Source: an uncultured Christensenellaceae bacterium
GTDB lineage: Bacteria; Bacillota; Clostridia; Christensenellales; SZUA-584
DNA: 64,000 nt
Direction of reading: 5' to 3'
Assembly: GCA_964586785.1 (NCBI GenBank)
Contig: CAZPHS010000003.1
Span: forward strand, 5,062-69,061
The position numbers and the translations under genes are program-made. Shown here piece after piece: positions 3,982-30,793 of the stretch; positions within the stretch are counted from its first letter, which is position 1, and the number at the start of each line of letters is the position of its first letter. Below the pieces are notes generated by a model. That model worked only from the letters and a program-made list of their open reading frames with translations. It was not told where the DNA came from and did not search any database.

Positions 3982-4086
3982 CGGGTCTCATATGTTTGGA
4001 ACACGCTGCGAAAAAACGCCAAACAACGTAAAATACCGGGTCTTGGGATTTTTGACGGAAAAGATATGTTGATGCCTGAACGCTAA

Positions 4087-4450
4087 AAGACCTGTTATTG
4101 TTCCAATTCTCGCCGGCCTTTGGAAAACGGCATGTATGAGATCGTGGCTGGTCACAACAGGGTTAAAGTGTCTGATTTAACTTCAGGACAACTTGTCCCC
4201 GAAGTTAGTAGAAGCAAGAGAAAAAGTTGCAAATGTGGCAGGAGAAAACTATAAACAAATATTAAGGTATATACGGTTGACTCAGCTTACACCACAACTT
4301 TTGGAGAAGATAGATGAGAAGAAGCTGGCGTTCATACCGGCTGTCGAGTTGTCATATCTCAAGGAGCGCGAACAAAAGTGGTCCTTGGATGAAATCACAA
4401 GGTCATTTCTGTGGAGCCCATACATTCTGATTAACGTTAGGACTATATAG
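4087..4450 (+). pseudogene. ParB/Srx-like (ICE/IME-type) gene remnant, frameshifted and internally deleted
   Basis: One frame reads ENGMYEIVAGHNRVKV, the ParB N-terminal GxYEIxxGHxR box. Another frame reads YKQILRYIRLTQLTPQLLEKIDEKKLAFIPAVELSYLKEREQ. The middle of the gene is missing and the tail is nonsense. Confidence 0.7.
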
Positions 4451-4472
4451 TGTTAATATTTAAGGCTTAATT

Positions 4473-4522
4473 TGCAGACTGCATGGATGTATGTTCTTCA
4501 GTTGCAGACCATGCAGACTGCC
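4473..4522. repeat. cluster of short palindromic TGCAGACTGC repeats
   Basis: TGCAGACTGC occurs at 4473-4482 and 4512-4521, with a partial TTGCAGAC at 4502-4509. GCAGACTGCATGG (4474-4486) and CCATGCAGACTGC (4509-4521) form a near-perfect inverted repeat. Confidence 0.6.
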
Positions 4523-4637
4523 ATCTTCCTTATCAGATGTATACCGCCCGCGTCATTCATTCAGAAAACGGTTTCTATACAAACATATTCAAATAGCCAG
4601 TTAACGCACCCTTTATATCTATAATATAAGATCGAAA

Positions 4638-4687
4638 TTGACACTTGCAATTACCCGGTGCTATAATAAATAGAAAACGATAACTAT
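4638..4687 (+). promoter_or_regulatory. consensus sigma-A promoter plus LacI-type operator motif (copy 1)
   Basis: TTGACA (4638-4643), 18 nt, TATAAT (4662-4667), then ATAGAAAACGATAACTAT (4670-4687) with a central CG. The same 21-nt string recurs at 11513-11533. Confidence 0.7.
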
Positions 4688-4699
4688 CAATGAAGGGAT

Positions 4700-5698
4700 G
4701 TGTTTGTCTTGATTATCGATTGTCACAACCATATACTGGCAGCGGGAGAATACCCCGGATATGAAAAGTTTATTAAAGAAATGACGCTTGGTTATTTCAG
4801 ATCAATGGGAAAATTGCCGGTAGACAGAATGCCGGTAGACAGCGACTGGGAAGGTATGGAATACCTATGGGCGCCGACTAGCCCCGAAAAGCTCAAAAAG
4901 GACCATCCGGGCATCGACAGGTGTACGATTCTCGCGGTAGCGCCTTCTGATTATACGGCTTACAGCATCCGAGGCAGCATAGACGTGGCAGGGCAGACCA
5001 ATGTACCGGGTCCTCCTTCTATTGATAAGGGAAACGACTATATTGCGGACATCGTGAAGTCTGACCCTAATTATTTCATAGGTTTTTGCGCGGTCAACCC
5101 AAAATACAAGGGTGTCGATGCGGCAGTCAGAGAGCTTGACAGAGCGATTAACGAGCTTGGATTAACCGGACTTAAGCTTTATCCATCGTACGACCATTAT
5201 TCTCCGGATGATAGGGAGCTTGCGTTTCCCATATTTGAAAAAGCACAGGAGTTGGGTATACCGGTTATGGTTCACCAGTCCTCAACGCCTGTTATCGATG
5301 CACCGCTTAAATTTGGAAGGCCCTTCCTGTTGGATGATGTTGGCTGCGCATTCCCGAATTTAAAACTACTGGCTTGCCATGCGGGTGCGCCATGGGTAGA
5401 CGAATGCCTTGTGTTGGCCGCAAAGCATCCCAATTTTTATATCGACATATCATTTTATAACAGCCTGTTGAGCGCTAAGGATACGCTGCTGTTTTTGCAC
5501 AAGTGTGTCGCATACGGTCTGCCGCTGGCAAAGGTATGCTGGGGAACGGACTATCCCGGCTTTGAGATGCCAAGGCAGCTGCTAGAAAAATTTATGAGCA
5601 TCAACCAATTTGCCAAAGAGCTTGGAGTCGCGCCCATTTCGCAGCAGGATATGGACGGATTGCTGGGACAAAACTATCTGAACTTTATTTCCCGGTAA
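4700..5698 (+). CDS. amidohydrolase-2 family metal-dependent hydrolase (TIM barrel; decarboxylase/lactonase-type)
   Basis: N-terminal IIDCHNHI metal-binding motif, later VMVHQS and CHAGAPW, and a DY motif near the C-terminus (WGTDYPG). This is typical of PF04909-like enzymes. The start is ambiguous (GTG 4700 or TTG 4709). Confidence 0.7.
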   Translation: MFVLIIDCHNHILAAGEYPGYEKFIKEMTLGYFRSMGKLPVDRMPVDSDWEGMEYLWAPTSPEKLKKDHPGIDRCTILAVAPSDYTAYSIRGSIDVAGQTNVPGPPSIDKGNDYIADIVKSDPNYFIGFCAVNPKYKGVDAAVRELDRAINELGLTGLKLYPSYDHYSPDDRELAFPIFEKAQELGIPVMVHQSSTPVIDAPLKFGRPFLLDDVGCAFPNLKLLACHAGAPWVDECLVLAAKHPNFYIDISFYNSLLSAKDTLLFLHKCVAYGLPLAKVCWGTDYPGFEMPRQLLEKFMSINQFAKELGVAPISQQDMDGLLGQNYLNFISR

Positions 5699-5779
5699 CA
5701 CGAGCTTTCAGATTTAATAAATTGCATTTTAACGGGGCAGTCTTAAAGTAGGGCTACCCCGTTAAATGGAGGAATTTTT

Positions 5780-6231
5780 GTGTTTCACATTTTGACCAAA
5801 GCAGACTGTTCAAAAATACATGAAGAAGCGCTCAACGTGCTTAAAACCACGGTTGTCAGAAGCAAAGACAAGCCCATGTATGATAAACTGGCCGGTTCCG
5901 CGTAGGCATACCTGTCAGCGAAGAAACGCTCGCAGCGGATGTTATCAAGGAAGTTGGCTTTTCTGGTGATTACCTGTTGACAGATACGATGCGTCATTTT
6001 AGAAATACATTATGGAGCCTTGAGCTTGCGAACCGTTTGACCCGGAATGTATGGGAAAACCGCAGCACGATGTCCATTGAGCAAAGAGCCGCTGAAAAGG
6101 TGAACAGCATACTGTCTCAAAAGCAGGATATCTATGTGGAACAAAGTCAGCTCAGCAAGCTGGAAAGAATCAGAAAGAAGTGGATGAAAAAGCTGACGCA
6201 GCTTATAAGGTGGGAGGCACAGAATGAGTAA
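5780..6231 (+). pseudogene. MttB-superfamily (trimethylamine/betaine-type) methyltransferase remnant with large internal deletion
   Basis: The N-terminal piece VFHILTKADCSKIHEEALNVLKTTVV... has its own GGAGG RBS and ends at a TAG (5903-5905). The C-terminal piece GIPVSEETLAADVIKEVGFSGDYLLTDTMRHFRNTLW...EQRAAEKVNSIL lies in another frame. Roughly 300 codons of the centre are absent. Confidence 0.65.
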
Positions 6232-6976
6232 AACGGCGATCATAACCGGCGGCAGCAGAGGCATAGGCTTTGCGATAGCGCAGCAGCTTGGCAAAGACGG
6301 TTACAACATTGTGATAACGGCCTCCGGCAGCAAACAGAAGTATACCGAGAATTTAGATGAGCTAAATAAAAACAGCATACCGCATGTGTATGTGCAGGCC
6401 GATATTTCGAAATCTTACGACAGGCTGAGCTGCTTTAACCGGGCGCTCGATGCTTTTGGCGGTGTGGATGTGCTGGTGAACTCTGCCGGAGTGGCACAAA
6501 AAGTGCGTGCCGACCTGCTTGAGATGACGGAGGAAAGCTTCGATCATGTGTTGTCGATAAACCTAAAAGGACTGCTTTTTTTTACACAGCTTGTTGCAAA
6601 CCAAATGGTAAAAAAACAGGAGGGCTGCATCATCAATATTTCTTCGCTGTCTGCTTACGCGGCATCGGTCAACCGAGGCGAGTATTGCATATCCAAAGCG
6701 GGAGTCAGCATGGTGACATCGCTTTTTGCGGACAGACTGGCCAAAGAGGGTATTTTGGTATATGAAGTGCGCCCCGGCATCATAGCGACCGATATGACGT
6801 CGGGCGTTGTACAAAAATACGATGCGCTTATTGAACAGGGCATTTTTCCGATTGCGCGATGGGGTAGGCCGCAGGACGTCGCCGATGCGGTTAGCGTTTT
6901 GTGCAGTGGAAAGTTTTCCTATTCAACCGGACAGGTGATCAATGTTGACGGCGGATTTCACATTCGACGTCTGTAG
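6224..6976 (+). CDS. short-chain dehydrogenase/reductase (SDR)
   Basis: TGGSRGIG cofactor motif, NSAG, and the YxxxK catalytic motif (YCISKAG). A GGGAGG RBS is present. The ATG overlaps the stop of the MttB remnant (ATGAGTAA). Confidence 0.85.
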   Translation: MSKTAIITGGSRGIGFAIAQQLGKDGYNIVITASGSKQKYTENLDELNKNSIPHVYVQADISKSYDRLSCFNRALDAFGGVDVLVNSAGVAQKVRADLLEMTEESFDHVLSINLKGLLFFTQLVANQMVKKQEGCIINISSLSAYAASVNRGEYCISKAGVSMVTSLFADRLAKEGILVYEVRPGIIATDMTSGVVQKYDALIEQGIFPIARWGRPQDVADAVSVLCSGKFSYSTGQVINVDGGFHIRRL

Positions 6977-8929
6977 ATGAGGGCTATGGATACACTGAGA
7001 TTAAGCGGGCATAAGGTTAGAATTGTTTCCATGAATACGGCCGTGGTGGGCGCAGGCGCCGCGGGGCTTTGTGCTTTGGGCAGGTTTTATGCCTACGGTC
7101 AGCGCGATATCGCTTTAATCTGCGAGGATATAAAAGCCGGCACATCCCGCAACACAGGGTCGGACAAGCAGACATATTATAAACTCACGCTTTCGGGTTC
7201 AAAACCCGATTCAGTACGCAGCATGACAAAAACGCTGTTTGACGGATTATGCGTTGACGGCGATATTGCGCTTGCAGAAGCAGCGCTTTCTGCTTCAAGT
7301 TTTTTCTGGCTTGCCGAGATGGGCGTTCCTTTCCCGAAAAACAGGTATGGCGAATACACAGGGTACAAGACCGATCACGATCCGATGCAGAGGGCAACTT
7401 CTGCAGGCCCATTAACATCCAAAATGATGACAGAGGCTTTGGAAGCCGACATCAAACAAAAGGGCATAAAAGTATATAACGGATATCAGGTGATTCGTAT
7501 CATAACAGAGTGCGGCAGTATACGTGGTCTTTTATGCCTTGATCTTAATATAGAAGACAGAGCCGAATATGTGCTGTTCAACTGCAAGAATGTGATTTAC
7601 GCAACGGGCGGACCGGCGGCTATCTATCAAGATTCGGTTTATCCCTTGAACCATTACGGTTCGAGCGGTATTGCTTTTGAAGTAGGCGTCAAAGGTAAAA
7701 ACCTGACCGAATGGCAATATGGGTTGGCTTCTGTCGCTCCGAGGTGGAACGTATCGGGCTCTTATATGCAGGCGCTGCCAAGATTTTTTTCTGCCGATCA
7801 AAAGGGCCGTCATCAAAGAGACTTTTTAAAAGAATACTTTAAAAACGACGCGGTTTATCTAAATCGTGTGTTCTTAAAGGGCTACCAGTGGCCGTTCGAT
7901 GTCAGCCGTATTGAAAATGGTTCATCGGTTATCGATTTGCTGGTTTATGAGGAAACCAGAAAAGGGCGCAGGGTCTTTATCGATTATACGCAAAACCCGC
8001 TGGATACCATGGATTATTCGCTGCTTGAAAATGAGGCGTTTGAATACCTTGAGAAAGCGGATATGCTTTTTGGTACACCGATTGAGCGGCTGATACGGCT
8101 TAACGAACCCGCTTATGCGCTCTACCGCGATAAGGGCGTGGATTTAAAGACGCAGCCGCTGGAAATCGCACTGTGCGCACAGCATCATAACGGCGGCCTT
8201 TCTACCGATTGCTGGTGGCAGACCAATGTTGAGGGCTTTTTTGCTGTGGGAGAGGTGAGCGCGACGCATGGCGTGTACCGGCCCGGCGGCAGCGCATTGA
8301 ACGCAGGCCAAGTGGGTGCCGAACGCGCTGCGCTTTATATATCAGTGAGACGCAAAGGCAGCCCTGGAGCTAACGATGCGTTTATAAAAGCAGCAGCAAA
8401 TTCTGCAATGGAGCTTATAGAGTGTGCAGACAGCGCTTGGGGCAGTACGGATAATGTCGTAGAGCTTTTTTCGGATGCCGCAAAACGTATGAGCCTTGCA
8501 GGGGCGGCGGTCAGATGTAAAAAACAAATTGAACAGGCCATAGACCGGGTAAAAAAACTGATGGATGGTTTCTCAAAAAGTGTTCAGGTAGCGTCGGTCG
8601 CTTCCTTGAGCCGCTTCTTTTATTTGCGTGATGCGCTGTTGAGTCAGTATGTCGTTTTAAACGCAATGGCCGATTATATCGATCGCGGAGGCGGAAGCCG
8701 CGGTTCGGCAGTATATCCGGACGAAATGGGAGAGAAAACCGTCGCTCTGTCCGATCGCACATTCTCGTTCTCGTCAGCAGACTTAAAATTTGGGCATATG
8801 GTACAGGAAACATTGCTTAAAAACGGACAATGTACATTTTTTTGGAGACCGGTGCGACCTATCCCCGGCGAAGACGATCTTTTTGAAAATGTATGGAGAA
8901 GATACAGGGAAGATAAAAATATCTATTAG
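6977..8929 (+). CDS. FAD-binding flavoprotein of the fumarate reductase / succinate dehydrogenase / L-aspartate oxidase type
   Basis: N-terminal VVGAGAAG dinucleotide fold; ATGGPA; HHNGGLSTD...FFAVGEVSATHGVYRPGGSALNAGQVGAERAA, resembling the FrdA/NadB C-terminal FAD segment. Substrate unknown. Confidence 0.65.
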   Translation: MRAMDTLRLSGHKVRIVSMNTAVVGAGAAGLCALGRFYAYGQRDIALICEDIKAGTSRNTGSDKQTYYKLTLSGSKPDSVRSMTKTLFDGLCVDGDIALAEAALSASSFFWLAEMGVPFPKNRYGEYTGYKTDHDPMQRATSAGPLTSKMMTEALEADIKQKGIKVYNGYQVIRIITECGSIRGLLCLDLNIEDRAEYVLFNCKNVIYATGGPAAIYQDSVYPLNHYGSSGIAFEVGVKGKNLTEWQYGLASVAPRWNVSGSYMQALPRFFSADQKGRHQRDFLKEYFKNDAVYLNRVFLKGYQWPFDVSRIENGSSVIDLLVYEETRKGRRVFIDYTQNPLDTMDYSLLENEAFEYLEKADMLFGTPIERLIRLNEPAYALYRDKGVDLKTQPLEIALCAQHHNGGLSTDCWWQTNVEGFFAVGEVSATHGVYRPGGSALNAGQVGAERAALYISVRRKGSPGANDAFIKAAANSAMELIECADSAWGSTDNVVELFSDAAKRMSLAGAAVRCKKQIEQAIDRVKKLMDGFSKSVQVASVASLSRFFYLRDALLSQYVVLNAMADYIDRGGGSRGSAVYPDEMGEKTVALSDRTFSFSSADLKFGHMVQETLLKNGQCTFFWRPVRPIPGEDDLFENVWRRYREDKNIY

Positions 8930-8946
8930 CTAAAAGGTGAGGCACA

Positions 8947-10239
8947 ATGATTGAAGAAATAAAAAAACGTTGTAAAGATCAGGGTATCCAAATCGGTTTT
9001 AGCGAGGATATCGGCATATTTAAGAAAAAGAAAGCTTTAGGCCGATTTGAGCTTGAAAACACGCTTGCGGTATTGCCTATGGAAGGAAACGATTCGGAGG
9101 AGTCAGGGGCGCCGTCCGAACTGACATTCCGCCGGTACAGGCGTTTCGCGCAAGGCGGAGCAGCGTTGATATGGGTAGAGGCGATTGCCGTTCAAAAAGC
9201 GGGCAGAGCCAGCCCGCATCAGCTTTACCTTGACAACCAGACACAGGAAGCTTTTGCTAAGCTGTGCGCGATGATAAAACGTGAGGGGCTCGACAAAAAC
9301 GGTTTTGAGCCTGTTGTAATCGCCCAATTGACGCATTCGGGACGATACTCAAAACCACAAGGCCCTCCAAGCCCTATAATTGCGGCGCGCAACCCCTGGC
9401 TGGATGAAAAATACAATATTCCAAAAACGCTTTCGCCAATCAATGATGAATCCCTTTTAGAACTGGAGAAAAAATTCTTTAATGCAGCGCTGCTTGCAAA
9501 GCAGGCCGGGTTTGACGGAATCGATATCAAAATGTGCCACGGATATCTGCTCAACGAGCTGTTGTCGGCATTTACGCGCAAAGGAGACTTTGGCGGCAGT
9601 TATCAGGGCAGGACACGATTTGCAAGGGATACCGTTAAGAATATCAGAGAAAAGACGGGTGAAGGCTTTATTATCGGCAGCAGGATGAGCCTGTTTGATG
9701 CCATGCCGTATCCGTACGGTTTTGGCATGACACAAGACGGTACCGTAAAAAGCGATTTGACTGAGCCGGTCAAGCTGATAATGGAACTGAGCCAGCTTGG
9801 CCTTGATGTCGCAGCAATAACAATCGGCAACCCCTACTATAAACCGCATTACAACAGGCCTTACGACAAAGGATTCTATGAACCGCCCGAACCTGCCTTA
9901 AAAGGCGTAGAACGTATACTGACGCTGACTAAAAACGTTAAGGAACAAACAAAGGATGTGCTTATAATAGGAGCGGGTTACACGTATCTGCGTGAAGCGG
10001 CAACCGAGGCGGGTGCGTACGCACTGCAAAACAACTATGCGGATTTAATAGGATTTGGCAGACAAGCCTTTGCATATCCTGATTTTGCATCTGACATTGT
10101 AAAGAATGGATGCCTAGACACAAAAAAAGTATGCATCACCTGTTCAAAATGCACAGAGATTATGCGAAAAGGCGGGCCGACAGGCTGTGCCATCAGAGAT
10201 TTTAAGTACAGAGAGATTTATAAGGAATACTGCCTGTGA
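8947..10239 (+). CDS. NADH:flavin oxidoreductase (Old Yellow Enzyme TIM barrel) with C-terminal Cys cluster, lacking the usual reductase domain
   Basis: OYE-type segments (AQLTHSGR, DGIDIKMCHGYLLNELLS) and a terminal CITCSKCTEIMRKGGPTGC Fe-S-like motif. At 430 aa it stops where FadH/BaiH-type enzymes continue into an FAD/NAD(P) domain. Confidence 0.75.
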   Translation: MIEEIKKRCKDQGIQIGFSEDIGIFKKKKALGRFELENTLAVLPMEGNDSEESGAPSELTFRRYRRFAQGGAALIWVEAIAVQKAGRASPHQLYLDNQTQEAFAKLCAMIKREGLDKNGFEPVVIAQLTHSGRYSKPQGPPSPIIAARNPWLDEKYNIPKTLSPINDESLLELEKKFFNAALLAKQAGFDGIDIKMCHGYLLNELLSAFTRKGDFGGSYQGRTRFARDTVKNIREKTGEGFIIGSRMSLFDAMPYPYGFGMTQDGTVKSDLTEPVKLIMELSQLGLDVAAITIGNPYYKPHYNRPYDKGFYEPPEPALKGVERILTLTKNVKEQTKDVLIIGAGYTYLREAATEAGAYALQNNYADLIGFGRQAFAYPDFASDIVKNGCLDTKKVCITCSKCTEIMRKGGPTGCAIRDFKYREIYKEYCL

Positions 10240-10241
10240 AG

Positions 10242-11291
10242 TCAGTTTGTAATTTGGCGCACGGTATCGCGTACGATAAGTCTTGGTTCAATTTTGAGAC
10301 TGGCATCCAAGGGCGTGCTGCCGTTTATTTTGTCGATCAATATTCTGCCGGCTAGATCGCCCATCTCGAACGCGAAGCATTTCACCGTGGTGAGCGCCGG
10401 TGAAAACATTGATGCAAAAGGAATATCGTCGAAACCGATGACCGAAACATCGCGTGGTACCTTTAAGCCCCCTTTATTGAGTTCTTGTATAAAGCCGAAC
10501 GCCACCATATCATTGACGCAAAGCGCCCCGGTTGCATCACATTTTAATTGTATAAACCGCTTTGCTAGCTGCGTGCCGATTGTATATTCGTAGCCGAACT
10601 GGTTTTCTTCCTGTTCGCTGTCCGCTTCAAATATGATGGGTTCGCCGGGCGTATCGGCACGCTCAGAAAGTGCGTCCAGATAACCTTTAGATGTTTCTCT
10701 GCGTGTCCAGCGAGTAAGGGGTGTTGTAATCAGCGCAATTTTGGTGTGGCCCTGATTAACAAGGTATTCGGTGGCAATTCTTGCCCCCTCGCGCGAATCA
10801 AAGAGTATATTGGTGCAGTTTTTGTCTTCAATTCGCTGGTCCAGCAACACAAAATTCATGCCTTTTCGAGAAAACTCCAGTATATTCTTACCGTCTTTGG
10901 CAACGGCGGATATGATGACGCCGTTAACTCTTTTGTTGTAGAGTATTTGCAGATAATTCCGTTCATCTTCAGCATGTCGAAACGTGTTGCACAAAAGTAT
11001 GTTGTATCCGCGTTTATGGATTTGTTTTTGTATACCGAGCAGCGCCGTCGAATAAAAAGGGTTCGAGACCGTTGGGACGATGACGCCGATTTCGCTGCTT
11101 GTTGAGGATTTTAAACCACGTGCCATTGCGTTGGGCGAGTAGTCAAGCTTCTCGACAACATCAAGAACCCTTTGACGCAATTTATCCGATACCGGATAGC
11201 CGTTATTGCTCAGAACACGCGAAACAGTTGTTGCGGACGTTCCCGAAAATTTTGCTACATCATGTATGGTATAATTCTTTTTGATTTGCAT
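10242..11291 (-). CDS. LacI-family transcriptional regulator
   Basis: N-terminal HTH (YTIHDVAKFSGTSATTVSRVLSN) plus a periplasmic-binding-protein-like sugar-binding core. It is divergent from the ABC/hydrolase operon. Confidence 0.9.
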   Translation of the reverse strand: MQIKKNYTIHDVAKFSGTSATTVSRVLSNNGYPVSDKLRQRVLDVVEKLDYSPNAMARGLKSSTSSEIGVIVPTVSNPFYSTALLGIQKQIHKRGYNILLCNTFRHAEDERNYLQILYNKRVNGVIISAVAKDGKNILEFSRKGMNFVLLDQRIEDKNCTNILFDSREGARIATEYLVNQGHTKIALITTPLTRWTRRETSKGYLDALSERADTPGEPIIFEADSEQEENQFGYEYTIGTQLAKRFIQLKCDATGALCVNDMVAFGFIQELNKGGLKVPRDVSVIGFDDIPFASMFSPALTTVKCFAFEMGDLAGRILIDKINGSTPLDASLKIEPRLIVRDTVRQITN

Positions 11292-11586: not shown

Positions 11587-12414
11587 GTGACAAAGAAAAT
11601 CGCTGTATTGCAGATTGATTCGGTTTTGGCGGATATAGATGCGAACTTATCCAAGATAGATAAGATGATCGGATCGATCAACGACAGGGATGTGCGTATG
11701 GCTGTTTTCTGCGAATACGGATTGACAGGGTACTGCACTGATTTGAATAAAATCGCCGAACCTGTTCCGGGTAGAATGATAAATGCCCTTGAAGCGATTT
11801 CGAAAAAGCACAACATATGGATCAGCGGAGGCACTGCAGAGCTGGTAGGCGACAAAATCGCCAATACAACAGTAATGATTTCTCCTGATAACGGTATGGT
11901 GGCAAAGTACAGAAAAATACATCCTTTCGGTGACGAGAGAAATGCCATCATTTATGGTGATGAGCCTGTTGTCGTCGATACCGAGATAGGAAAAGTCGGT
12001 ATGACAATCTGTTATGACTTTATTTTTCCAGAGCTTGTACGCGGGCTCGCGCTTAAAGGCGCCGAAATCATTCTCAATTCAACATTCTGGTTTGCTGATG
12101 ATATCAGCGGTCCCGCCGGTTTTGAGCCCGAACAGGTCATGTCGCTGGCAAGAATCAGAGCGCTTGAAAACAACGTTTATGTGGCCATGGCGTGCCGTAC
12201 CGGCGAAGAAACGGCACCATGGGGCGGAAAGGTGCGCGGTTTCGGGTATTCTTCAATTGCAGGCCCTGTCGGGAAAACGCTTGCTCACGCCGGTCTTGGA
12301 GAGATGGTTATTACAGCGGATATCGATCTTGAAAAACGCAAGGCATGGGCTGAATATGCTGCGTATTTAAAGGACCGCAGGCCGGATATCTATAAAAACA
12401 TTCTTGATTTTTAA
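11587..12414 (+). CDS. carbon-nitrogen hydrolase (nitrilase superfamily; amidase/N-carbamoyl-amidase type)
   Basis: The E-K-C triad context is intact: VFCEYGLTGY, KYRKIHPF, GMTICYDFIFPE. A GGGAGGA RBS precedes the GTG start. Confidence 0.85.
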   Translation: MTKKIAVLQIDSVLADIDANLSKIDKMIGSINDRDVRMAVFCEYGLTGYCTDLNKIAEPVPGRMINALEAISKKHNIWISGGTAELVGDKIANTTVMISPDNGMVAKYRKIHPFGDERNAIIYGDEPVVVDTEIGKVGMTICYDFIFPELVRGLALKGAEIILNSTFWFADDISGPAGFEPEQVMSLARIRALENNVYVAMACRTGEETAPWGGKVRGFGYSSIAGPVGKTLAHAGLGEMVITADIDLEKRKAWAEYAAYLKDRRPDIYKNILDF

Positions 12415-12435
12415 AAAGCTTTTATGGGAGAGAAA

Positions 12436-13389
12436 ATGAGTAAAACCCAGATAGTAAACCAATACAATAGCGTCTATATCGTAATGGTCCTACTGTGCGT
12501 TGCGGCTTTTATATACAAACCCTCGTATATGCAAGCTGAGAACATTTATGTCATGCTCAGGCAGACATCGGCACTTGGCATGCTAGCGTTGGGGCAGCTG
12601 TTTGTCATATCGGCAGGCGGCGTTGACCTATCCGTCGCGGCCACGATGCAGGGCGCTGTAACGATTTTCATGTTCAGTTCCAATACCTACGGTCCTGCAG
12701 GATTGGTTGTCGGGATCGTTTTGAGTCTGATCGCCGGACTGATTGTCGGCCTTATAAACGGAATCATTATTGCCAAGTTTAAAGTACAGCCTTTTCTGAC
12801 AACTCTTTTTACAGGCGCCATACTGGTCGGCATCAGACGCGTATTTGCAGGTGTTACACCGATGGGCGTTGCACCCCGGCAAATAATGGACATTGTCAAA
12901 GGCGAAAAGTCGGGCGCTTTTCCAAATGCTTCGTTGATTTTTCTGTTTTTCTCTGTAATTGTGTTCGTAATTTTCAAGTACACGGTTTACGGCAGAAAAA
13001 TCATGTCGGTAGGAACAAATCCGACTGCGGCGTTGTTCTCGGGATATAAAATAGACCGCATTAAAATATCGACGTATTGCATAAGCGCATTGGCTGCAGT
13101 GCTTTCCTCAATCGTTATGGTCGGTTACACGGGATACGCAGACCAGGAGGCACTGGGGAAAGGCATGGAGATGGATTCGCTCGTGGCGGTCGTGCTTGGC
13201 GGCAATTATCTTGGCGGCGGCCGCGGATCGGTTGTCGGTACGGTGGGCGGCGTGCTTGTCACAACATTAATTATCAACATTGTAATACTGTTCGGATTTG
13301 AAATACAGCATCAATATGTTGTCAAGGGCGTTATATTGCTGCTTGTTACATTTATCGCTTCACTTGTCAGAAAAAATGCACATGTTTAA
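12436..13389 (+). CDS. ABC transporter permease, ribose/CUT2 type (RbsC-like)
   Basis: About 10 TM segments with the RbsC-like GGVDLSV motif. I start at MSKTQ (12436) behind a GGGAGAG RBS. Confidence 0.85.
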   Translation: MSKTQIVNQYNSVYIVMVLLCVAAFIYKPSYMQAENIYVMLRQTSALGMLALGQLFVISAGGVDLSVAATMQGAVTIFMFSSNTYGPAGLVVGIVLSLIAGLIVGLINGIIIAKFKVQPFLTTLFTGAILVGIRRVFAGVTPMGVAPRQIMDIVKGEKSGAFPNASLIFLFFSVIVFVIFKYTVYGRKIMSVGTNPTAALFSGYKIDRIKISTYCISALAAVLSSIVMVGYTGYADQEALGKGMEMDSLVAVVLGGNYLGGGRGSVVGTVGGVLVTTLIINIVILFGFEIQHQYVVKGVILLLVTFIASLVRKNAHV

Positions 13390-13429
13390 ATTTCGGAGTA
13401 AATCCGGATTAATTAAAGGAGGTAATACA

Positions 13430-14503: not shown

Positions 14504-14538
14504 ATAAGTAAAGCATAGATTATTTACAGGGCGTTTAG

Positions 14539-19307: not shown

Positions 19308-19322
19308 GAATCGGGGAAGGCT

Positions 19323-21024: not shown

Positions 21025-21027
21025 CAG

Positions 21028-23661: not shown

Positions 23662-23672
23662 AGGAGCAAAAG

Positions 23673-24728
23673 ATGAGTAAAACGATATTTCAGAAGGATC
23701 TTGAACAGTTCTGCATTGATGCGTTGAATAAAAGCGGTATGGAAAGCTTATACGCGGTAGTAACGGCAAAAGTGCTAGTCGAAACGGATGCATACGGCAC
23801 ACATTCACACGGCACAAAGAACTTAAGGCTTTATATTGAGAAATTCAAGGCAGGCGCGCTCGATCAGAAAGCGCGGCCCGAATTTATACTGCAGGGCGGT
23901 GCGTTTGCGGTGATGGATGCTAAGGATGCCATGGGCATGGTATCCTCGTATCTCGCTATGGAGAAAGCCGTTGAGCTTGCGCAAAAAAGCGGCATCGGTT
24001 TTGTCAGTGTAAAAAACAGCTGTCATTTCGGAGCCGCGGGTTACTACGCAAACATGGCGGCCCAAAAAGGGCTTATCGGCATTGCAATGAGCAACACCGA
24101 CCCGAACATGACGGTGCCGGGCGGAAAAAGCATGATCATAGGAAACAGCCCGATTGCGTATGCGGTTCCGGCCGGTAAGTATAAGAGTATGTTTTTGGAT
24201 ATCGCGATGAGCGCAACGGCTGCGCTGAAAATAAATCAGGCCAAGCTCGAAAAAAAAGCGATCCCAAATACGTGGCTGGTTGACGATAAGGGCATACCGA
24301 CGACCGATCCAAAGTATTACGGAAATGGCGGGGCGCTTCAGCCGATGGCGGCGCACAAGGGCTATGGGCTTTCTTTACTGGTTGACGTGCTCTCAGGGGT
24401 GCTTTCGGGCGGCGAGATAACCAGCGGCATCACAAGCTGGTGTTTTGATATGGCCGCAAAAAACAGAGTCAGCCATGCTTTTATTGCACTGGATATCAGA
24501 CAAATGCAGCCGGAAGATAAATTCATAGAAAGAATAGAGGGCTATATCGATTATTTGAAAAATGCGCCCAAAGCCAAAGGCAACGATACGATTTATTATC
24601 CGGGTGAAATTGAATGGCTTAAGAAACAAAAGGCCGATGAGCAGGGAATAGCTCTGCCTGATGATGTGGTTCAAAGCTTAGAGCAGCTTGCACAAAGCAC
24701 AGGCCTGAGTCTTGCTTGGGTCCAATGA
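23673..24728 (+). CDS. Ldh2-family (malate/L-lactate/ureidoglycolate/diketogulonate-type) dehydrogenase
   Basis: THSHGT and CHFGAAGYYA segments match Ldh_2 family patterns. An AAGGAG RBS precedes the ATG at 23673. Confidence 0.8.
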   Translation: MSKTIFQKDLEQFCIDALNKSGMESLYAVVTAKVLVETDAYGTHSHGTKNLRLYIEKFKAGALDQKARPEFILQGGAFAVMDAKDAMGMVSSYLAMEKAVELAQKSGIGFVSVKNSCHFGAAGYYANMAAQKGLIGIAMSNTDPNMTVPGGKSMIIGNSPIAYAVPAGKYKSMFLDIAMSATAALKINQAKLEKKAIPNTWLVDDKGIPTTDPKYYGNGGALQPMAAHKGYGLSLLVDVLSGVLSGGEITSGITSWCFDMAAKNRVSHAFIALDIRQMQPEDKFIERIEGYIDYLKNAPKAKGNDTIYYPGEIEWLKKQKADEQGIALPDDVVQSLEQLAQSTGLSLAWVQ

Positions 24729-24754
24729 GTTTAAACGGCTAAAAGGGTAACGGT

Positions 24755-25669
24755 ATGCCGGATTTCTCATCACTCATATTGATGCTGATGCTGATTTGCA
24801 CGGGGTTTGTTCTGAGCAGGGTCAAGCTTTTACGCCGGGAGCAAACCAGTGCGCTTCCGGGGCTGCTGCTCAATATGGCTTACCCCGCGTTGATCATAAA
24901 ATCGGTCACATCAGTCGATGTGGGCAGACTTGCAAAGGAGAGTCTGATCGTTGCGGGGGTCACCGCTGCGGTGACGCTGGCGCTGTTTGTTTTGGGTACT
25001 GTGCTGTTAAAGCGGTATAAAGACGCAAAGAGAAGGCCTTTGATACTCTTTTCTATGGCAGTCGGCAACATCGCGTATGTGGCTCTGCCTGTGGTGCGGA
25101 TGCTGTACGGAGATGTGGGCGTTTATTACACGATACTCCACAGCACCACGCAGGATGTGATGATATGGACGCTGTATTATGCCTATTTTGTAGGCGGCGG
25201 CACGCTCAAAGGGTTTAAGCCCAAAAAAATATTGAGCCCCGGATTTGCCGCAATCGTGCTGGGGGTGCTGCTCGCGGCATTTGGAATCAAACCGCTGGGC
25301 ACTGTGGCAATGTTTTTAGAAGCGCTTGCGGCGCTTACGGTGCCTCTGGCGCTGGTTTACATCGGTGCCGTTTTGGCATCGTACAAAAAAAGCAGTGACT
25401 GGATGCCCGATAGGGATACCTGTTTGATTTCTGTAATCAAGGTTCTTGTGCTGCCGGCCGCCGTTTATGGCATTATGTGGCTTGTGCCTGCCGATGCGGA
25501 ATTAAGACTGATGATGGCATTGTTTTTCGCGGCGCCGGTCACGGTGCTCAGCACCATTTGGGCAAAAGAGTATGGATTCGATTACCATTTCTCGGTTAAA
25601 GCGCTGATTTTCTCGACGCTGTTGTTTCTGCTGGCGGCCGGAGCCACCATAATATGGATGGACAGATAA
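24755..25669 (+). CDS. AEC (auxin efflux carrier) family transporter
   Basis: About 10 TM helices in a two-repeat organisation typical of the AEC/malonate-type permease family. Confidence 0.75.
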   Translation: MPDFSSLILMLMLICTGFVLSRVKLLRREQTSALPGLLLNMAYPALIIKSVTSVDVGRLAKESLIVAGVTAAVTLALFVLGTVLLKRYKDAKRRPLILFSMAVGNIAYVALPVVRMLYGDVGVYYTILHSTTQDVMIWTLYYAYFVGGGTLKGFKPKKILSPGFAAIVLGVLLAAFGIKPLGTVAMFLEALAALTVPLALVYIGAVLASYKKSSDWMPDRDTCLISVIKVLVLPAAVYGIMWLVPADAELRLMMALFFAAPVTVLSTIWAKEYGFDYHFSVKALIFSTLLFLLAAGATIIWMDR

Positions 25670-25696
25670 AAAATTTGAAACTGGAGGATTATAAAT

Positions 25697-26509
25697 ATGC
25701 AGATGCGTATCGACGGTAAAGTTGCCGTTGTAACCGGAGGGGCAGGCGTATTGTGTGCGCAAATGGCAGTAGGGCTCGCTGCAAGCGGTGCTAAGGTTGC
25801 CGTACTTGATATAAGCACCGATAAAGCGCAGGAAGTTGCGGACGGTATCGCAAACCTCGGCTATAAGGCCATTGCGATGGAATGCAATGTACTGAGCAAG
25901 GAAAGCGTGGAGAAGGCATGCAGTTTAGTTATCGGCAAGTTCGGTACGGTCGATATTTTGATAAACGGTGCCGGCGGAAATAAAGCCGACGCGACGACGG
26001 GCGCTAATATGAGCTTTTTCGATATGCCCAAAGAGGCCATAGAATGGGTGTTTGATTTGAATCTTATGGGCACAATACTGCCCACGCAGGTTTTCGGACG
26101 TGTGTTTGCACAAAAAAAAGGAGGCTGTGTCGTCAACGTTTCGTCTATGGCGGCCTTTACGCCTTTGACTAAAACGGTGGCTTACAGCGCAGCCAAAGCG
26201 GGCGTGACGAATTTTACGCGGTGGATGGCGACGCATTTTAATCAGGAGTATTCGCCGAATATTCGCGTTAATGCCATTGCGCCCGGGTTTTTGCTGACAC
26301 AGCAGAATGAATACCTGCTTGTCGATCAAAAAACAAAACAGCACACAGAAAGGGGCGCAAAGATTATCGCGGGCACGCCGATGGGGCGCTATGGCAAACC
26401 CGAAGAACTGGTGGGCGCCGTCGTTTTCCTGTGTTCTTCCGCCGCTTCTTTCATCAACGGTGCAGTCTTGCCGATTGACGGGGGATACGCCGCATATTCA
26501 GGCGTATAA
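25697..26509 (+). CDS. SDR oxidoreductase, UxuB/YjmF-like (short-chain D-mannonate/fructuronate-type)
   Basis: TGGAGVL, NGAGGNKADATT...FFDM insertion, YSAAKAG, PIDGGY. It sits directly upstream of eda and kdgK. Confidence 0.7.
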   Translation: MQMRIDGKVAVVTGGAGVLCAQMAVGLAASGAKVAVLDISTDKAQEVADGIANLGYKAIAMECNVLSKESVEKACSLVIGKFGTVDILINGAGGNKADATTGANMSFFDMPKEAIEWVFDLNLMGTILPTQVFGRVFAQKKGGCVVNVSSMAAFTPLTKTVAYSAAKAGVTNFTRWMATHFNQEYSPNIRVNAIAPGFLLTQQNEYLLVDQKTKQHTERGAKIIAGTPMGRYGKPEELVGAVVFLCSSAASFINGAVLPIDGGYAAYSGV

Positions 26510-26538
26510 CGATATAAACAATTTTAAGGAGTGCAGAA

Positions 26539-27498
26539 ATGGATAATGTATTGAAAAAAATCGGAGACATGGGTCTGGTACCGGTCGTCGTCATTGAAGA
26601 TGCCGACCTTGCGGTACCGGCGGCAAAGGCCTTGATTGACGGCGGGCTTGATGTGATGGAAATCACCATGCGCACCGAGCAAGGTATTGCCGCAATCGAG
26701 AAAGTCAAAAAAGCGTATCCGGATATGCTGGTAGGAGCCGGAACGGTACTGACGGTCGAAAAAGCCAAAGAAGCCGTCGGCGCCGGTGCAGAATTTATCG
26801 TCGCGCCAGGATTCAACCCAGATATGGTTCAGTGGTGCATGGATAAGAATATTGCGATAACACCGGGGTGTGTAACGCCCACCGAAATCGAGCAGGCGCT
26901 CAAAGCCGGCCTTAACACGCTTAAATTCTTTCCGGCCAATATCTACGGAGGCATAGACGGATGCAAAGCGCTGAACGGTCCGTACCGTATGGTCAAGTTT
27001 ATACCAACAGGCGGCGTCAGTCTCAGCAACCTGTCCGATTTCACCGACAAACCCTTCATACATGCCATCGGCGGGGGATGGCTGTGTAAAACAGCCGATA
27101 TCAAAGCGCAGAACTTTGAAGCCATTACCAAGGTGGTTAAAGAATCGATCAACGTGCTGCTCGGGTTTGAAATGGCGCACATCGGTATCAATGTCCAAAA
27201 CGCGGATGAGTCCTTGAAAACTGCCGGGAGGTTTGCAGACGGTTTCGGATTTTCGGTCAAACAAGGAAATTCCTCTAATTTTGTGGGCAGTGGCATTGAA
27301 GTGAATAAGGCGGCCGGGCTAGGTGCCAACGGGCACATTGCGATACGCACCAGCAGCATCGCGCGTGCGGTTTATTATCTTGGTAAGAGAGGTTATTGCG
27401 TCGACTGGAGCACCAGTAAAGGGCCGGAGCAAAGGCCGGTTGCTGTTTATCTGAAAGACGAAATCGGCGGCTTTGCAATACACCTTTTACAAAAATAG
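26539..27498 (+). CDS. eda: KDPG/KHG aldolase fused to a C-terminal VOC (glyoxalase-like) domain
   Basis: The first ~210 aa are Eda-like (VPVVVIEDA, EITMRT, GAGTVL, KFFPA, IPTGGV). A further ~105 aa (MAHIGINVQNADES...GHIAIRTSSIARAVYYL...FAIHLLQK) looks like a single VOC module. Confidence 0.8.
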   Translation: MDNVLKKIGDMGLVPVVVIEDADLAVPAAKALIDGGLDVMEITMRTEQGIAAIEKVKKAYPDMLVGAGTVLTVEKAKEAVGAGAEFIVAPGFNPDMVQWCMDKNIAITPGCVTPTEIEQALKAGLNTLKFFPANIYGGIDGCKALNGPYRMVKFIPTGGVSLSNLSDFTDKPFIHAIGGGWLCKTADIKAQNFEAITKVVKESINVLLGFEMAHIGINVQNADESLKTAGRFADGFGFSVKQGNSSNFVGSGIEVNKAAGLGANGHIAIRTSSIARAVYYLGKRGYCVDWSTSKGPEQRPVAVYLKDEIGGFAIHLLQK

Positions 27499-27507
27499 CG
27501 GAGGAAC

Positions 27508-28542
27508 ATGATGATGAAAAAAGTTATTACATTCGGAGAAGTGATGCTTAGGCTCAAGTCGCCCGGCAATGAAAGGATGTTTCAGTCTCCCGCGCTGGAG
27601 GCGACATTTGGAGGCGGAGAAGCAAATGTGGCTATTTCGCTGGCCAACTTTGGTATGAACGTTGCTTTCGTCACTGCACTGCCCAAAAATATGATCGGTG
27701 AGAGCTGTGTGCAGGAACTCAGAAAATGGGGCGTGGATACATCGAAAATCATCAGGAGCGACGCACGAATGGGTGTCTATTTCCTTGAAACGGGCGCGAA
27801 CCAGCGGCCATCCAGCGTGGTCTATGACAGAGATCAATCCGCAATTTCACTGGCAAAACCGGGTGATATCGACTGGGATGTCGTGTTTGACGGTGCAGAA
27901 TGGTTCCATATTACCGGCATTACCCCGGCTATAAGCAAAGATGCAAAAGAGCTTTCTTTCGAAGCGGTCAAAAAGGCAAAAGAGAAAGGGCTGACGATAT
28001 CCTGCGACTTCAATTTCCGCAAAAAACTGTGGAAATACGGCGAGTCAGCCACCGATGTGATGCCAAGGCTCGTTGAATACTGCGACTACGGCATAGCGAA
28101 TGAAGAGGACTGCCAGAAGTCTCTCGGTGTTCATATAGACGTAAAAGTGGAAAGCGGCAAACTGGATACCGATCAATACAAGGCTTTGGGTGACAAGGTT
28201 TTAAGTATGTATCCGAACTTAAAGGCCATTGCCATCACGTTGCGCGAAAGCGTCAGTGCGGATATAAACGGCTGGGCGGCATGCCTGAATGACAGAAACA
28301 CCTTTAGCCTGAGCAAAAAATATGAAATCAGGGACATCATTGACCGCGTCGGCGGCGGTGATTCGTTTGCTGCCGGTTTGATATACGGTCTTAATGCCTA
28401 CAGCAGCAAACAGGAGGCGCTTGAATTTGCCGTTGCGGCAAGCTGCCTTAAGCATTCCATCATGGGCGACTTCAACCGTGTGACTGTCGCCGAAGTGGAG
28501 AAGCTCAAAGGCGGTGATGCGTCGGGCAGGGTTCAGCGCTAA
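27508..28542 (+). CDS. kdgK: 2-dehydro-3-deoxygluconokinase (PfkB family)
   Basis: [19 protein letters not shown] and the C-terminal [13 protein letters not shown] motif; adjacent to eda. Confidence 0.85.
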
Positions 28543-28586
28543 GCCATGCGGGATGTAGCCAAGCATCGGGATTCGGGAGATGTGCA

Positions 28587-29783
28587 TTGAAAAATAATAA
28601 AGAAATCCTTGGAGTTTACCCAATATTCTTTTGTTATGCTTTTTATTTATCGATGCTTGGCCAGCTGGTCCCGTATCTGCAGCAAAAATACGGACTTGTG
28701 CTCATGGGCGCGGGTTTGTTTTCAACGCTGCAGTCGGTGGGGGGTATAGCAGCGGTATGTATCTACATAATGTATCTGGATTGGGTCAGCAAACCAAAGC
28801 TTCTGGCAGTTTTGGGCATCGTCTTTGGCATCCAGATGGCATTTGTAGGAATGATGCCGACTTTTTTGCTGGCTTGTCTGCTCTTTGTACTCATAGGTTT
28901 TGTCAACAGCTTCGTCAACGCACTATCAAATGCCGTTGTATCAGATTATACCATGGAGCAAAGAGGGCTGTATCTTAATCTGCTGCATGGTTTTTTCGGA
29001 CTTGGCGGAGCAGTAGGTTCACAGGCGGCGGGCTTTATAAAAGGTGTTGCCGGTATAGAACAGACCTTTTTGTGGTTTGGTGTCATCGCAGCGGGGTTTG
29101 CTTTTAGCTACCATTTGTTATTGAGGCGCGGTATGCAGTTCCCTGTTGTTGCAGTGAGACAATCATCAGCGGTCCGGTTGCACGTATTAAAGCAGGCCAT
29201 TAAAATACCCGGCATGATAAGCGTTGTTTTGGTAGCATTTTTCAATGCATTTGTATTGATCAACGTGCTATACTTTACATATTCATATGTTTACGGGTTA
29301 AGCGGTAACATACGTATTTCGGCAGCCGCGATAACAGTTTTTTTTGTTTTTATGGCATTGAGCCGTTTCATCGGAACAAAACTGACGAAAAGGCTAACGC
29401 CCAAACAGTTCGTTTTCTGGGGCAGCCTTCTTGGATTTGGCGCATACATCATTGCCGGCTTGACGGTAAACGTATTTGTTGTTGTTGCTATGATAGGGAT
29501 GCTTGGTTTTTTTACGGGAAACCATTTGCCTCAGATTACCAACGCCGCGTGCTCGATCATCCCCGAAACGTCGGCAGCAGCGACGGGGCTGATCACTCTT
29601 GGTTATTTTCTTGCAACCATTGTGGCTTCGCCGATTATCGGATGGGTAGGCGATGCTTTTAGTCTCAAGCATGCGTTGATGGTTAATGCTTTGATGCTTG
29701 TGCCGGCCGCAATGCTTTCCTTGAAGATGGGTAGCGGAAAACTGATAAATCATAAAGAATATCAATTAAATATAAAAATATGA
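28587..29783 (+). CDS. MFS transporter
   Basis: 12-TM profile; TTG start behind a GGGAGA RBS. Confidence 0.75.
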   Translation: MKNNKEILGVYPIFFCYAFYLSMLGQLVPYLQQKYGLVLMGAGLFSTLQSVGGIAAVCIYIMYLDWVSKPKLLAVLGIVFGIQMAFVGMMPTFLLACLLFVLIGFVNSFVNALSNAVVSDYTMEQRGLYLNLLHGFFGLGGAVGSQAAGFIKGVAGIEQTFLWFGVIAAGFAFSYHLLLRRGMQFPVVAVRQSSAVRLHVLKQAIKIPGMISVVLVAFFNAFVLINVLYFTYSYVYGLSGNIRISAAAITVFFVFMALSRFIGTKLTKRLTPKQFVFWGSLLGFGAYIIAGLTVNVFVVVAMIGMLGFFTGNHLPQITNAACSIIPETSAAATGLITLGYFLATIVASPIIGWVGDAFSLKHALMVNALMLVPAAMLSLKMGSGKLINHKEYQLNIKI

Positions 29784-29795
29784 AAGGATGGCATT

Positions 29796-30413
29796 ATGCT
29801 TAAATTTGAAACAGACAAAACCGCGCTTGTGATCGTTGATCTTCAGAATGATTTTGTGCGTATCGGAGCCGCTTTGGAAGTTGCCGATGCACGAAAAACA
29901 ATACCTGTGGCTCAGAAACTGATTGCTTTTGCACGTAAGAAAAATATGCCGATTGTCTTTACTAAATTTGTTGCAGGGCCAAAGAGAACTCTTCTTTGGA
30001 ACTGGAGCCCGCAAATTAAAGAAGACAGTTGCTGCTTTCGCAACTTTAAACGCTATTATCTTGAAGAAGGAAAAGAGCTCGAAGTTACCGATATTATATC
30101 GGAGTTAAAACCAGAACCCCATGATTATATCATCGAAAAGTATGGTTACTCTTCTTTTAGAAATACTGCGCTGCAGGATATCTTGGCGGCTGAAAACAGA
30201 GACTCCATCATTGTTTTAGGTACGGTTACGCAGATCTGTGTTGAGGATACGGTGCATGATGCTTTTCATCTTGGTATTAAAACGCTGGTGGCAAAAGACG
30301 GCGTATCCTCGTTTGACAGCCAACTGCATGATGCCGCGATAAAGAATTTCGAGATGAAATATGCGGCGGTTGCGGATTCGGACAGCATTATAAAGATGAT
30401 GAGTGAAAATTAA
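29796..30413 (+). CDS. isochorismatase-family cysteine hydrolase (RutB / N-carbamoylsarcosine amidase / nicotinamidase family)
   Basis: ALVIVDLQNDF (Asp), a conserved Lys region, and GTVTQICVEDT with the nucleophile Cys. Confidence 0.8.
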   Translation: MLKFETDKTALVIVDLQNDFVRIGAALEVADARKTIPVAQKLIAFARKKNMPIVFTKFVAGPKRTLLWNWSPQIKEDSCCFRNFKRYYLEEGKELEVTDIISELKPEPHDYIIEKYGYSSFRNTALQDILAAENRDSIIVLGTVTQICVEDTVHDAFHLGIKTLVAKDGVSSFDSQLHDAAIKNFEMKYAAVADSDSIIKMMSEN

Positions 30414-30453
30414 CGGAACTATCCCATATTAGCAAAAAGAAACCGAGCTGTAA

Positions 30454-30790
30454 CAAAAGAAGGTTCTAGGTGACAGAGAGCATAAGCTTGGCGCAAAGTA
30501 TAAAGCGAAGCAGAACGAGCTTAAGGTCGGCCTGTCGGAGCTGAAAGCGGAGTTGGCTGTTGTTAGGGACGATACCGAAAACATCAAACATATGATTGAA
30601 CGCTTTAAGCAGTGCGTTTACATTGAAGAACTGGATAGGGATACCGTATGCGAGCTGATCGACTAAATATGGGTATACAAAAAGGATAATGCCGGGAAAG
30701 GCTACAGGCAGAAGATCGGCATACACTGCAACTTTGTCGGGGATCTGAACGGCTGCGATATCATGGCATATTTCGATCACATCACGAGAA
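30454..30790 (+). pseudogene. 3' remnant of a large serine recombinase gene with in-frame nonsense codon
   Basis: Reads ...LSELKAELAVVRDDTENIKHMIERFKQCVYIEELDRDTVCELID*IWVYKKDNAGKGYRQKIGIHCNFVGDL, with the TAA at 30664-30666. This is the coiled-coil and C-terminal tail typical of TndX/CcrB-like recombinases. The catalytic N-terminus is absent. Confidence 0.65.
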
Positions 30791-30793
30791 ACC

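Follow-up and report, generated by a model that had tools for sequence, protein, structure and literature searches.

A 64,000-nt stretch of the genome of an uncultured Christensenellaceae bacterium (contig C3, positions 5062-69061, of a 1.86-Mb genome in 43 contigs; hereafter the window) contains a block of 26.8 kb at window positions 4064-30797 that is a decayed integrative island, akin to the cis-mobilizable elements (CIMEs) described in other bacteria, with a fixed catabolic cargo of genes for sugar or heterocycle breakdown and for transport; the phenomenon itself is already well known. We estimate the probability at roughly 0.7 that this block (also called the island below) was acquired by site-specific integration at the 3' end of the tRNA-Ser(GCT) gene, as one element or as two elements in tandem. 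Remnants of mobile-element genes occur at both of its borders, next to two copies of a direct repeat that includes the end of the tRNA gene. The features that make up the borders are the following, in window coordinates:

4009-4063: left repeat copy, attL-like, consisting of a decayed tRNA-Ser terminator, CCA and 8 nt of acceptor stem (TTTTTGACGGAAAAG versus TTTTGGCGGAGAAG)
4053-4091, plus strand: left arm of a ParAB-type integrative and conjugative element (ICE), which over 39 nt has ~77% identity with the stretch located after the TGGCGG core and upstream of parA in species G013 and G003
4094-4382, plus strand: ParB-like remnant in two pieces (4094-4168 and 4173-4382), frameshifted and truncated at both ends
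30487-30819, plus strand: 3' remnant of a gene for a DUF4368-type large serine recombinase, 111 codons long, with an in-frame TAA at 30664-30666
30798-30852: right repeat copy, attR-like, consisting of the functional tRNA-Ser terminator hairpin and the initial 11 nt of the tRNA gene, namely CCA and part of the acceptor stem
30842-30935, minus strand: tRNA-Ser(GCT), the presumed integration target (ARAGORN; Rfam tRNA, 53.3 bits)

At the left border, an initial reading of the window from its letters alone (the sequence-only reading) had pointed to a frameshifted, internally deleted ParB-like gene, and this is what we found. The two pieces are 81-89% identical in DNA sequence to the full-length, 349-aa parB genes of G013, G004, G003 and G010, which belong to the 22 other species of the genus that we used for comparison (hereafter congeners, labelled G002, G003, G004 and so on; the closest two are G002 and G006). 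In G013 the segments corresponding to the two pieces are 176 bp apart, and the window thus has an internal deletion of ~175 bp. Also deleted are parA and the first ~100 codons of parB, so that the left arm of the ICE is fused to the middle of parB through a deletion of ~1 kb, and the last ~100 codons are absent as well. The Pfam matches of the fragments are weak and fall in two frames (HTH_ParB, E = 2.9e-4; ParB_N, E = 0.2), the ParB_N match of a full-length congener parB being E = 2e-20; no single open frame holds ParB_N together with the helix-turn-helix domain, and the locus is a pseudogene remnant.

At the right border, the predicted serine-recombinase tail of about 110 codons with an in-frame TAA was likewise recovered. 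In a 584-aa serine recombinase of G013, the 111 codons have their counterpart in residues 474-584, with 68% identity (tblastn), and when the TAA is read through, they contain an essentially complete C-terminal DUF4368 domain of the large serine recombinases (E = 2.9e-12, 47.1 bits, profile positions 2-66 of 67). The Resolvase catalytic, Recombinase and zinc-ribbon domains are missing from the window, which makes this a remnant rather than a gene; the full-length relative in G013 has all three (Resolvase, 1.1e-23; Recombinase, 3.7e-24; Zn_ribbon_recom, 4.6e-16) in addition to DUF4368. At the DNA level the remnant is 74-79% identical to four congeners, and its similarity to five recombinase genes or remnants of these four stops each time at 30805-30807, while a match to the host tRNA-Ser terminator of G008 begins at 30809, placing the end of the recombinase right at the tRNA-Ser terminator, as had been suggested. 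Similarity searches with the left and right remnants recovered the ParB and serine-recombinase families, respectively.

A distance of 34 nt separates the end of the block from the 3' end of tRNA-Ser(GCT), and the two borders of the block carry imperfect direct repeats that include this 3' end. A local alignment of the repeat cores (4046-4063 and 30835-30852) has 15/18 matches, a score equalled by 42 of 2000 shuffled sequences, and the global alignment over 55 nt scores 13, as compared with -11.5 +/- 4.3 in shuffled sequences, none of which reached as high (0/5000). The left copy runs directly into the ICE left arm. Its core reads TGACGGAAAAG where the tRNA has TGGCGGAGAAG, a degeneration expected for a displaced, non-functional tRNA end following integration into a tRNA gene. 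These properties suggest that the two copies are a putative attL and a putative attR.

The base composition of the block differs from that of the host in a manner that GC content does not disclose. The native genes next to the two borders are the following:

3498-3944, plus strand: divIVA, the last native gene on the left (Pfam DivIVA, E = 1.5e-12; ratio of observed to expected CpG dinucleotides, CpG o/e, 1.42), with a terminator at ~3953-3985
30991-31782, minus strand: GNAT acetyltransferase gene and its T-box leader (31535-31782), the native right flank (Pfam; Rfam T-box; CpG o/e of the GNAT gene 1.54)

The sequence-only reading had noted fewer CG runs in the block than in its GCG/CGC-rich flanks and had called for a sliding GC and tetranucleotide analysis. 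GC proved flat (0.43-0.51 within the block and outside it), and we dropped it as a marker of the island in favor of CpG o/e and tetranucleotides, which did set the block apart: CpG o/e is 1.19 in the block versus 1.56 in the rest of the window. Genes of the island average 1.17 (n = 25) and flanking genes 1.58 (n = 11; p = 5e-6, Mann-Whitney). The genome as a whole, although its GC content is only 47%, has an unusually high CpG o/e of 1.48, with a 5th percentile of 1.23 among 5-kb segments, and all 5-kb segments across 2.5-32.5 kb of the window have a CpG o/e of 1.16-1.30 and a tetranucleotide distance in the 85th-97th percentile. The block is the longest low-CpG tract of the genome, and its own tetranucleotide distance falls in the 91st-97th percentile. 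Its edges are sharp, with CpG o/e falling from 1.42 in divIVA to 0.94 in the ParB remnant on the left, and rising from 1.20 in the recombinase remnant to 1.54 in the GNAT gene on the right. Loci sampled from other members of the genus have values of 1.07-1.32; the block therefore resembles ordinary Clostridia DNA that has not yet drifted to the composition of its host.

The match between composition steps and remnants bears on the possibility that the framing is coincidental, that is, that remnants of unrelated insertions came to lie at rearrangement or deletion junctions, whereas the cargo arrived separately, for instance through homologous recombination or in a composite of insertion sequences (ISs), or is old chromosomal DNA. 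We consider this unlikely. Each step in composition falls no more than a few hundred bases from a remnant, the left remnant starts with a copy of the same tRNA end that is found at the right border, and native genes trapped between such junctions would have a CpG o/e of ~1.5, which the island genes do not.

In all, 34 segments totalling 202 kb, or ~11% of this genome, are low in CpG and probably represent acquired DNA, and host housekeeping genes reach a CpG o/e of 1.6-1.8. One such tract on contig C10 (1-22,000) contains a full-length large serine recombinase that is 30% identical to that of G013, another on C30 (10,000-17,000) contains a near-full ParB homologue (56%), and a further recombinase fragment lies in a low-CpG tract on C2 (~13,165-13,701); these genes point to additional integrated elements.

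The block is absent from the nearest relatives. No DNA match to it was detected in G002 or G006, whose DivIVA proteins are 73% and 63% identical to that of the host, and these two species have no orthologue of six cargo proteins that we queried in concatenated form against the 22 congeners, only paralogues. Four of the six (the CN-hydrolase, the creatininase-family protein, the dihydropyrimidine dehydrogenase (DPD)-like protein and Ldh_2) have no orthologue in any of the 22.

Since the genome is a draft of 43 contigs, we considered whether contig C3 could be chimeric at ~3973 and ~30800-32070. The left junction is spanned by contigs of SRR8449813 (to 4143), ERZ27247376 (to 4220), ERZ27247346 and GCA_041656035.1, and the right junction by SRR8449813 contigs covering 26004-30899 and 30888-33673 and by a 138-kb contig of ERZ27247346 from the European Nucleotide Archive (ENA). 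All are 99.9-100% identical to the window and hence represent the same strain in separate assemblies, so that an assembly artefact is essentially refuted. Look-ups of identical proteins led, at 99.98-100%, to this strain alone in the four data sets named, and also to one strain at 98%; two of the proteins, being start-codon variants, had no record. In SRR8925713, the only diverged strain seen (98.3-98.7% identity), contigs stop at 3973 and start again at 32070, just upstream of rplS; such ends would be compatible with an artefact at these positions, and they may mark strain-level presence or absence of the island, or a different insert at these borders.

Intact relatives of both ends of the block are present in the genus. 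An ICE of ~71 kb in G013 (C1 ~2,157,760-2,228,870) comprises a core, parA, parB, an actin-like protein gene and Tad/Flp-type pilus genes, and its right end is formed by two tandem serine recombinase genes followed by tRNA-Ser(TGA). The 3' ends of these recombinase genes face the 3' end of the tRNA, the same architecture that the remnants suggest for the window. G003 (C97) harbors a copy of this ICE, 78-86% identical, in which pilus genes and a thioester/CARDB adhesin are annotated, and its left end occurs in near-identical form in G003, G004 and G010; an attP-like junction on contig C8 of G004 unites the ICE right arm, the core TGGCGGAG and the left arm with parA. For the type of recombinase found in the window, the cores at the element ends are identical to tRNA-Ser 3' ends (TGGCGGAGAAGCC in G004; TGGCGGAGAGAG in G013 and G014). 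As the ParAB ICE ends at tRNA-Ser and the elements with the window recombinase type end at tRNA-Ser-like cores, both element types use tRNA-Ser. An intact gene of the window recombinase type lies at the end of a G013 prophage with portal and capsid genes, with no ParAB within 48 kb, and in G013 a 3' remnant of this type abuts the left end of the ParAB ICE via the TGGCGG core, which looks like accretion in tandem at a single tRNA gene. Beside this ICE left end lie a copy of IS200 and a recombinase remnant of older date. We had considered parB and the recombinase gene as former neighbours split by insertion of the cargo, and dropped this as the two lie at opposite ends of the intact G013 element.

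These relatives leave one element and two tandem elements about equally probable as the source of the island. A single ICE or integrative and mobilizable element (IME), with parA-parB on its left, the DUF4368 recombinase on its right and 26 kb of its own cargo, would have required internal deletions only; we regard this special case of integration at tRNA-Ser as possible and hold it tentatively. It is in line with the attP-like order seen in G013, where the TGGCGG core links the 3' remnant of this recombinase type to the parA left arm, with the finding of no third or internal att copy above chance inside the block, and with the uniformly low CpG o/e throughout. However, the recombinases at the end of the intact ParAB ICE in G013 are two others, only 30% identical to the window type, the intact gene of the window type is found at a prophage end rather than with ParAB, and GC differs among sub-blocks of the island (0.43-0.47 vs 0.50-0.51). 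The presence of different recombinases in the ParAB ICE suggests that the two ends of the window block may not come from one element. A three-step route has been described in streptococci, in which an element integrates, decays to a CIME and is joined by a second integrating element (PMC5704250). Because both element types use tRNA-Ser, the window may similarly pair the left end of one element with the right end of another. A more far-reaching version of the single-element explanation holds that both remnants are the ends of one undescribed class of Clostridia ICE, with a DUF4368 recombinase specific for tRNA-Ser 3' ends, a replacement tRNA end and terminator, and a multi-operon catabolic cargo of ~26 kb. 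This version appears doubtful to us; if it were true, the window would preserve a fossil of such an element, domesticated in a shrinking genome.

Between the two borders lies the cargo, which was described by the sequence-only reading as 23 intact genes and which, by Pfam, consists of 22 full-length genes and one fragment, arranged in three modules:

4709-11291: module 1, with genes for an amidohydrolase_2 protein, an MttB C-terminal fragment, a short-chain dehydrogenase/reductase (SDR), an FAD_binding_2 flavoprotein and a flavin oxidoreductase of the old yellow enzyme (OYE) type, all on the plus strand
5944-6231, plus strand: C-terminal fragment of an MttB-family methyltransferase gene, ~75 residues (Pfam E = 1.3e-6, profile positions 415-489 of 500)
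10242-11291, minus strand: divergent gene for the LacI-family regulator of module 1 (Pfam)
11587-17645, plus strand: module 2, with genes for a CN-hydrolase, an ABC importer of the CUT2 (ribose) type and a DUF523 protein (Pfam)
17738-30413, plus strand: module 3, with genes for NagB-like, creatininase-family, TetR, GFO/IDH/MocA, 877-aa DPD-like and Ldh_2 proteins, an AEC transporter, an SDR, a 2-keto-3-deoxy-6-phosphogluconate (KDPG) aldolase, a PfkB kinase, a major facilitator superfamily (MFS) transporter and an isochorismatase (Pfam)

The MttB fragment, lodged between the amidohydrolase and SDR genes, shows that a deletion occurred inside the cargo. The ABC importer of module 2 comprises a permease, a binding protein and an ATPase fused to a second permease. 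This fused protein with two nucleotide-binding domains (14588-17080) is of a widespread kind, with thousands of metagenome homologues of 820-860 aa at 46-56% identity, some of which bear the name ribose transport ATP-binding protein, and its architecture is not peculiar to the host. No intact recombinase, relaxase, coupling protein, type IV secretion or Tad gene was found by Pfam among the genes of the block. The island therefore lacks the integrase and conjugation module of its own that define an ICE (111 of 584 recombinase codons are left, with a stop), and its genes for integration and transfer are gone in the manner of a CIME, with just the ParB and recombinase fragments left. Having lost these mobility genes, the island is no longer able to excise or transfer by itself.

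Parts of the cargo recur in other Clostridia. Within the genus, an orthologue of the flavoprotein is present in nine congeners (44-58% identity) and one of the aldolase in four species, and the SDR-FAD-OYE cluster is found at 54-60% amino acid identity in 9/22 congeners, the two nearest not among them. The core of the module 3 operon occurs in many metagenome-assembled genomes of Clostridia and Oscillospiraceae, at 55-67% amino acid identity. When 185,579 species genomes were searched for a donor, the DPD-like protein and the fused ABC protein had best matches of 67% and 41%, respectively, and there was no block-wide match. In a set of 5.8 billion proteins, the fused ATPase-permease has its best homologue at 71% identity.

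This homologue led not to a donor but to an ENA contig, ERZ27297438 k141_2662037 (27,296 bp; GC 0.43; CpG o/e ~1.0-1.2), which carries ~18 of the cargo genes at 55-83% amino acid identity. Their order is circularly permuted, running from the CN-hydrolase through PfkB to the amidohydrolase, DUF523, SDR, flavoprotein and LacI genes. The OYE, MFS and isochorismatase genes are absent, those for TetR, amidohydrolase, SDR and flavoprotein are broken, and an IS1595 transposase gene and a gene for a 530-aa tyrosine integrase are inserted among the cargo genes. A 75-nt inverted repeat lies near two LacI-proximal promoter regions of the same contig. In addition, the junction of the ABC, DUF523 and NagB genes is retained on a 1.2-kb contig of SRR17347032 at 76% nucleotide identity. 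The permuted co-occurrence on an unrelated contig, together with this junction, indicates that the three modules move together between lineages, which speaks in favor of a single functional pathway rather than of modules put together piece by piece in this genome.

Besides the mismatch between the recombinases of the G013 ICE and that of the window, a number of observations weigh against acquisition by integration at tRNA-Ser. The repeat is diverged, with about 67% identity over 55 nt and two changes in the left core, and the right copy resembles the host terminator of G008, so that an element-borne copy would need an element from a related host. Large serine recombinases with DUF4368 are usually multi-target rather than tRNA-specific (PMC10083194). 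Homologues of the SDR-FAD-OYE, isochorismatase and PfkB genes in nine congeners have identities like those of housekeeping genes, such that an older residence in the genus would also fit, and no donor above 83% amino acid identity was found. Finally, the empty site that the sequence-only reading had proposed to look for, joining ~3980 to ~30800, was not found in at least eight congeners around divIVA, rplS and tRNA-Ser, and synteny around the two borders is not conserved. In G002 and G006, thpR-hppA-leuA come after divIVA, whereas the host has these genes on contig C1 at ~72 kb; the sequence upstream of rplS differs in every relative, rplS and the tRNA-Ser-GNAT pair are found on other contigs, and in G002 the contig breaks off within the tRNA. 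The state before insertion is thus inferred rather than seen.

The same scrambling around divIVA, tRNA-Ser and rplS can be cited for a chance juxtaposition of unrelated remnants, and there are further points on that side: deletions have taken place next door, where the trp operon was lost between the T-box and the GNAT gene; on the unrelated ENA contig the cargo adjoins an IS1595 transposase and a tyrosine integrase, and not the element types of the window; and the SDR-FAD-OYE-isochorismatase-PfkB cluster is chromosomal in the nine congeners. Set against the composition steps and the shared tRNA end, these points do not in our judgement displace integration at tRNA-Ser as the explanation of the block. 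The proposal of a decayed integrative element with fixed cargo accordingly stands as regards a foreign block, lost mobility genes and tRNA-Ser, and is corrected as regards GC, the integrity of the cargo, the empty site and the origin of the two ends, which is likely to be dual.

The gene order thpR-hppA-leuA-leuC is located on the host contig C1 at ~72,244-78,533, and follows divIVA in G002 and G006. Its position on a separate contig implies that a rearrangement breakpoint coincides with the left border of the island.

We infer the following order of events, including the carriage of the cargo by one of the elements involved. The left end would derive from a carrier of the ParA/ParB ICE family and the right end from an element with a DUF4368-type large serine recombinase. 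Integration would have pushed the original tRNA terminator and 3' end far to the left, where they now appear in decayed form (4009-4063), and the functional copy would have stayed beside the tRNA body (30798-30852). Later deletions may have removed parA, most of parB, the conjugation or phage core and 473/584 recombinase codons; they would have happened in a shrinking genome, of 1.86 Mb as compared with mostly 2-4 Mb in the genus and 1.7-1.8 Mb in the nearest two species. Selection would then have retained three coherent modules, namely a LacI-controlled redox and amidohydrolase module, a CN-hydrolase and ABC importer module, and a TetR-associated module that ends in a 2-keto-3-deoxygluconate (KDG) kinase and the KDPG aldolase.

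The flanks of the island are made up of housekeeping genes, for which gene calls, Pfam and ARAGORN agree with the order first proposed: on the left two patatin genes, then lgt and divIVA, which ends at 3944, and on the right tRNA-Ser(GCT), the GNAT gene with its T-box leader, rplS, rbgA and rnhB. Orthologues of divIVA are present in 32/41 relatives, and the GNAT gene is kept next to tRNA-Ser in G002 and G008. At Rfam gathering thresholds there was no match in 3900-32300, and an E-value setting recovered both the tRNA and the T-box, the latter scoring 92.8 bits against a gathering score of 93 (31535-31782, minus strand, directly upstream of the GNAT gene). Homologous T-box leaders lie 7.5-11 kb from the GNAT gene and tRNA-Ser in G002 (C69), G008 (C2) and G003 (C113). 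The position of the leader directly beside the GNAT gene in the host, as opposed to 7.5-11 kb away in relatives, fits the loss of an intervening operon here.

No general principle is changed by this island. It does offer a clean, datable case in which a genome that is otherwise losing genes, such as the trp operon next door, gained and fixed a whole catabolic capability, with a decayed att repeat, ~330 bp of parB and a recombinase piece of 333 bp as all that is left of the carrier. The CpG-rich background of the host makes foreign DNA easy to see, and other acquired DNA can be mapped in the same way. The ~20 cargo genes travel between distant Clostridia as a unit, which supports treating them as one pathway in the search for a substrate, and tRNA-Ser is added as a common target of two serine-recombinase element types in the genus.

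Among known systems, the window resembles the ~71-kb ICE of G013, with which it shares the left arm and parB, the orientation towards tRNA-Ser, and serine recombinase sequence beside the tRNA; it differs in that ~330 bp of this ICE are left in the window, its core genes are gone, and the recombinase at the tRNA is of another type. The clc element at tRNA-Gly and ICEMlSym at tRNA-Phe are intact, self-transmissible catabolic-type ICEs with tyrosine integrases. Islands of this type have in common with the window a large catabolic gene set at a tRNA 3' end, direct repeats and atypical composition, whereas the window is a stripped remnant in a Clostridia-type genome, with serine-recombinase ends.

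CIMEs are decayed ICEs or IMEs that keep attL and attR, have lost the genes for integration and transfer, and are often arranged in tandem at tRNA 3' ends (PMC5704250). The window is like them in its repeat copies with a tRNA 3' end, in the absence of recombinase and transfer modules, in its retained adaptive cargo, and in the evidence for tandem accretion at tRNA-Ser in the genus. In contrast to them, its left att copy is decayed, so that cis-mobilization may be lost, its remnant is that of a serine and not a tyrosine recombinase, and no functional partner element lies in tandem with it in the host genome. The large serine recombinases with DUF4368 form a TnpX/TndX-like clade (Tn4451, Tn5397), the members of which are mostly multi-targeting (PMC10083194). 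The window remnant fits this clade through its complete DUF4368, and its full-length relative in G013 does so through the combination of Resolvase, Recombinase, Zn_ribbon_recom and DUF4368 domains. Unlike these enzymes, the window version retains only the last 111 codons and has no catalytic domain, and the elements that carry its relatives end at tRNA-Ser-like cores.

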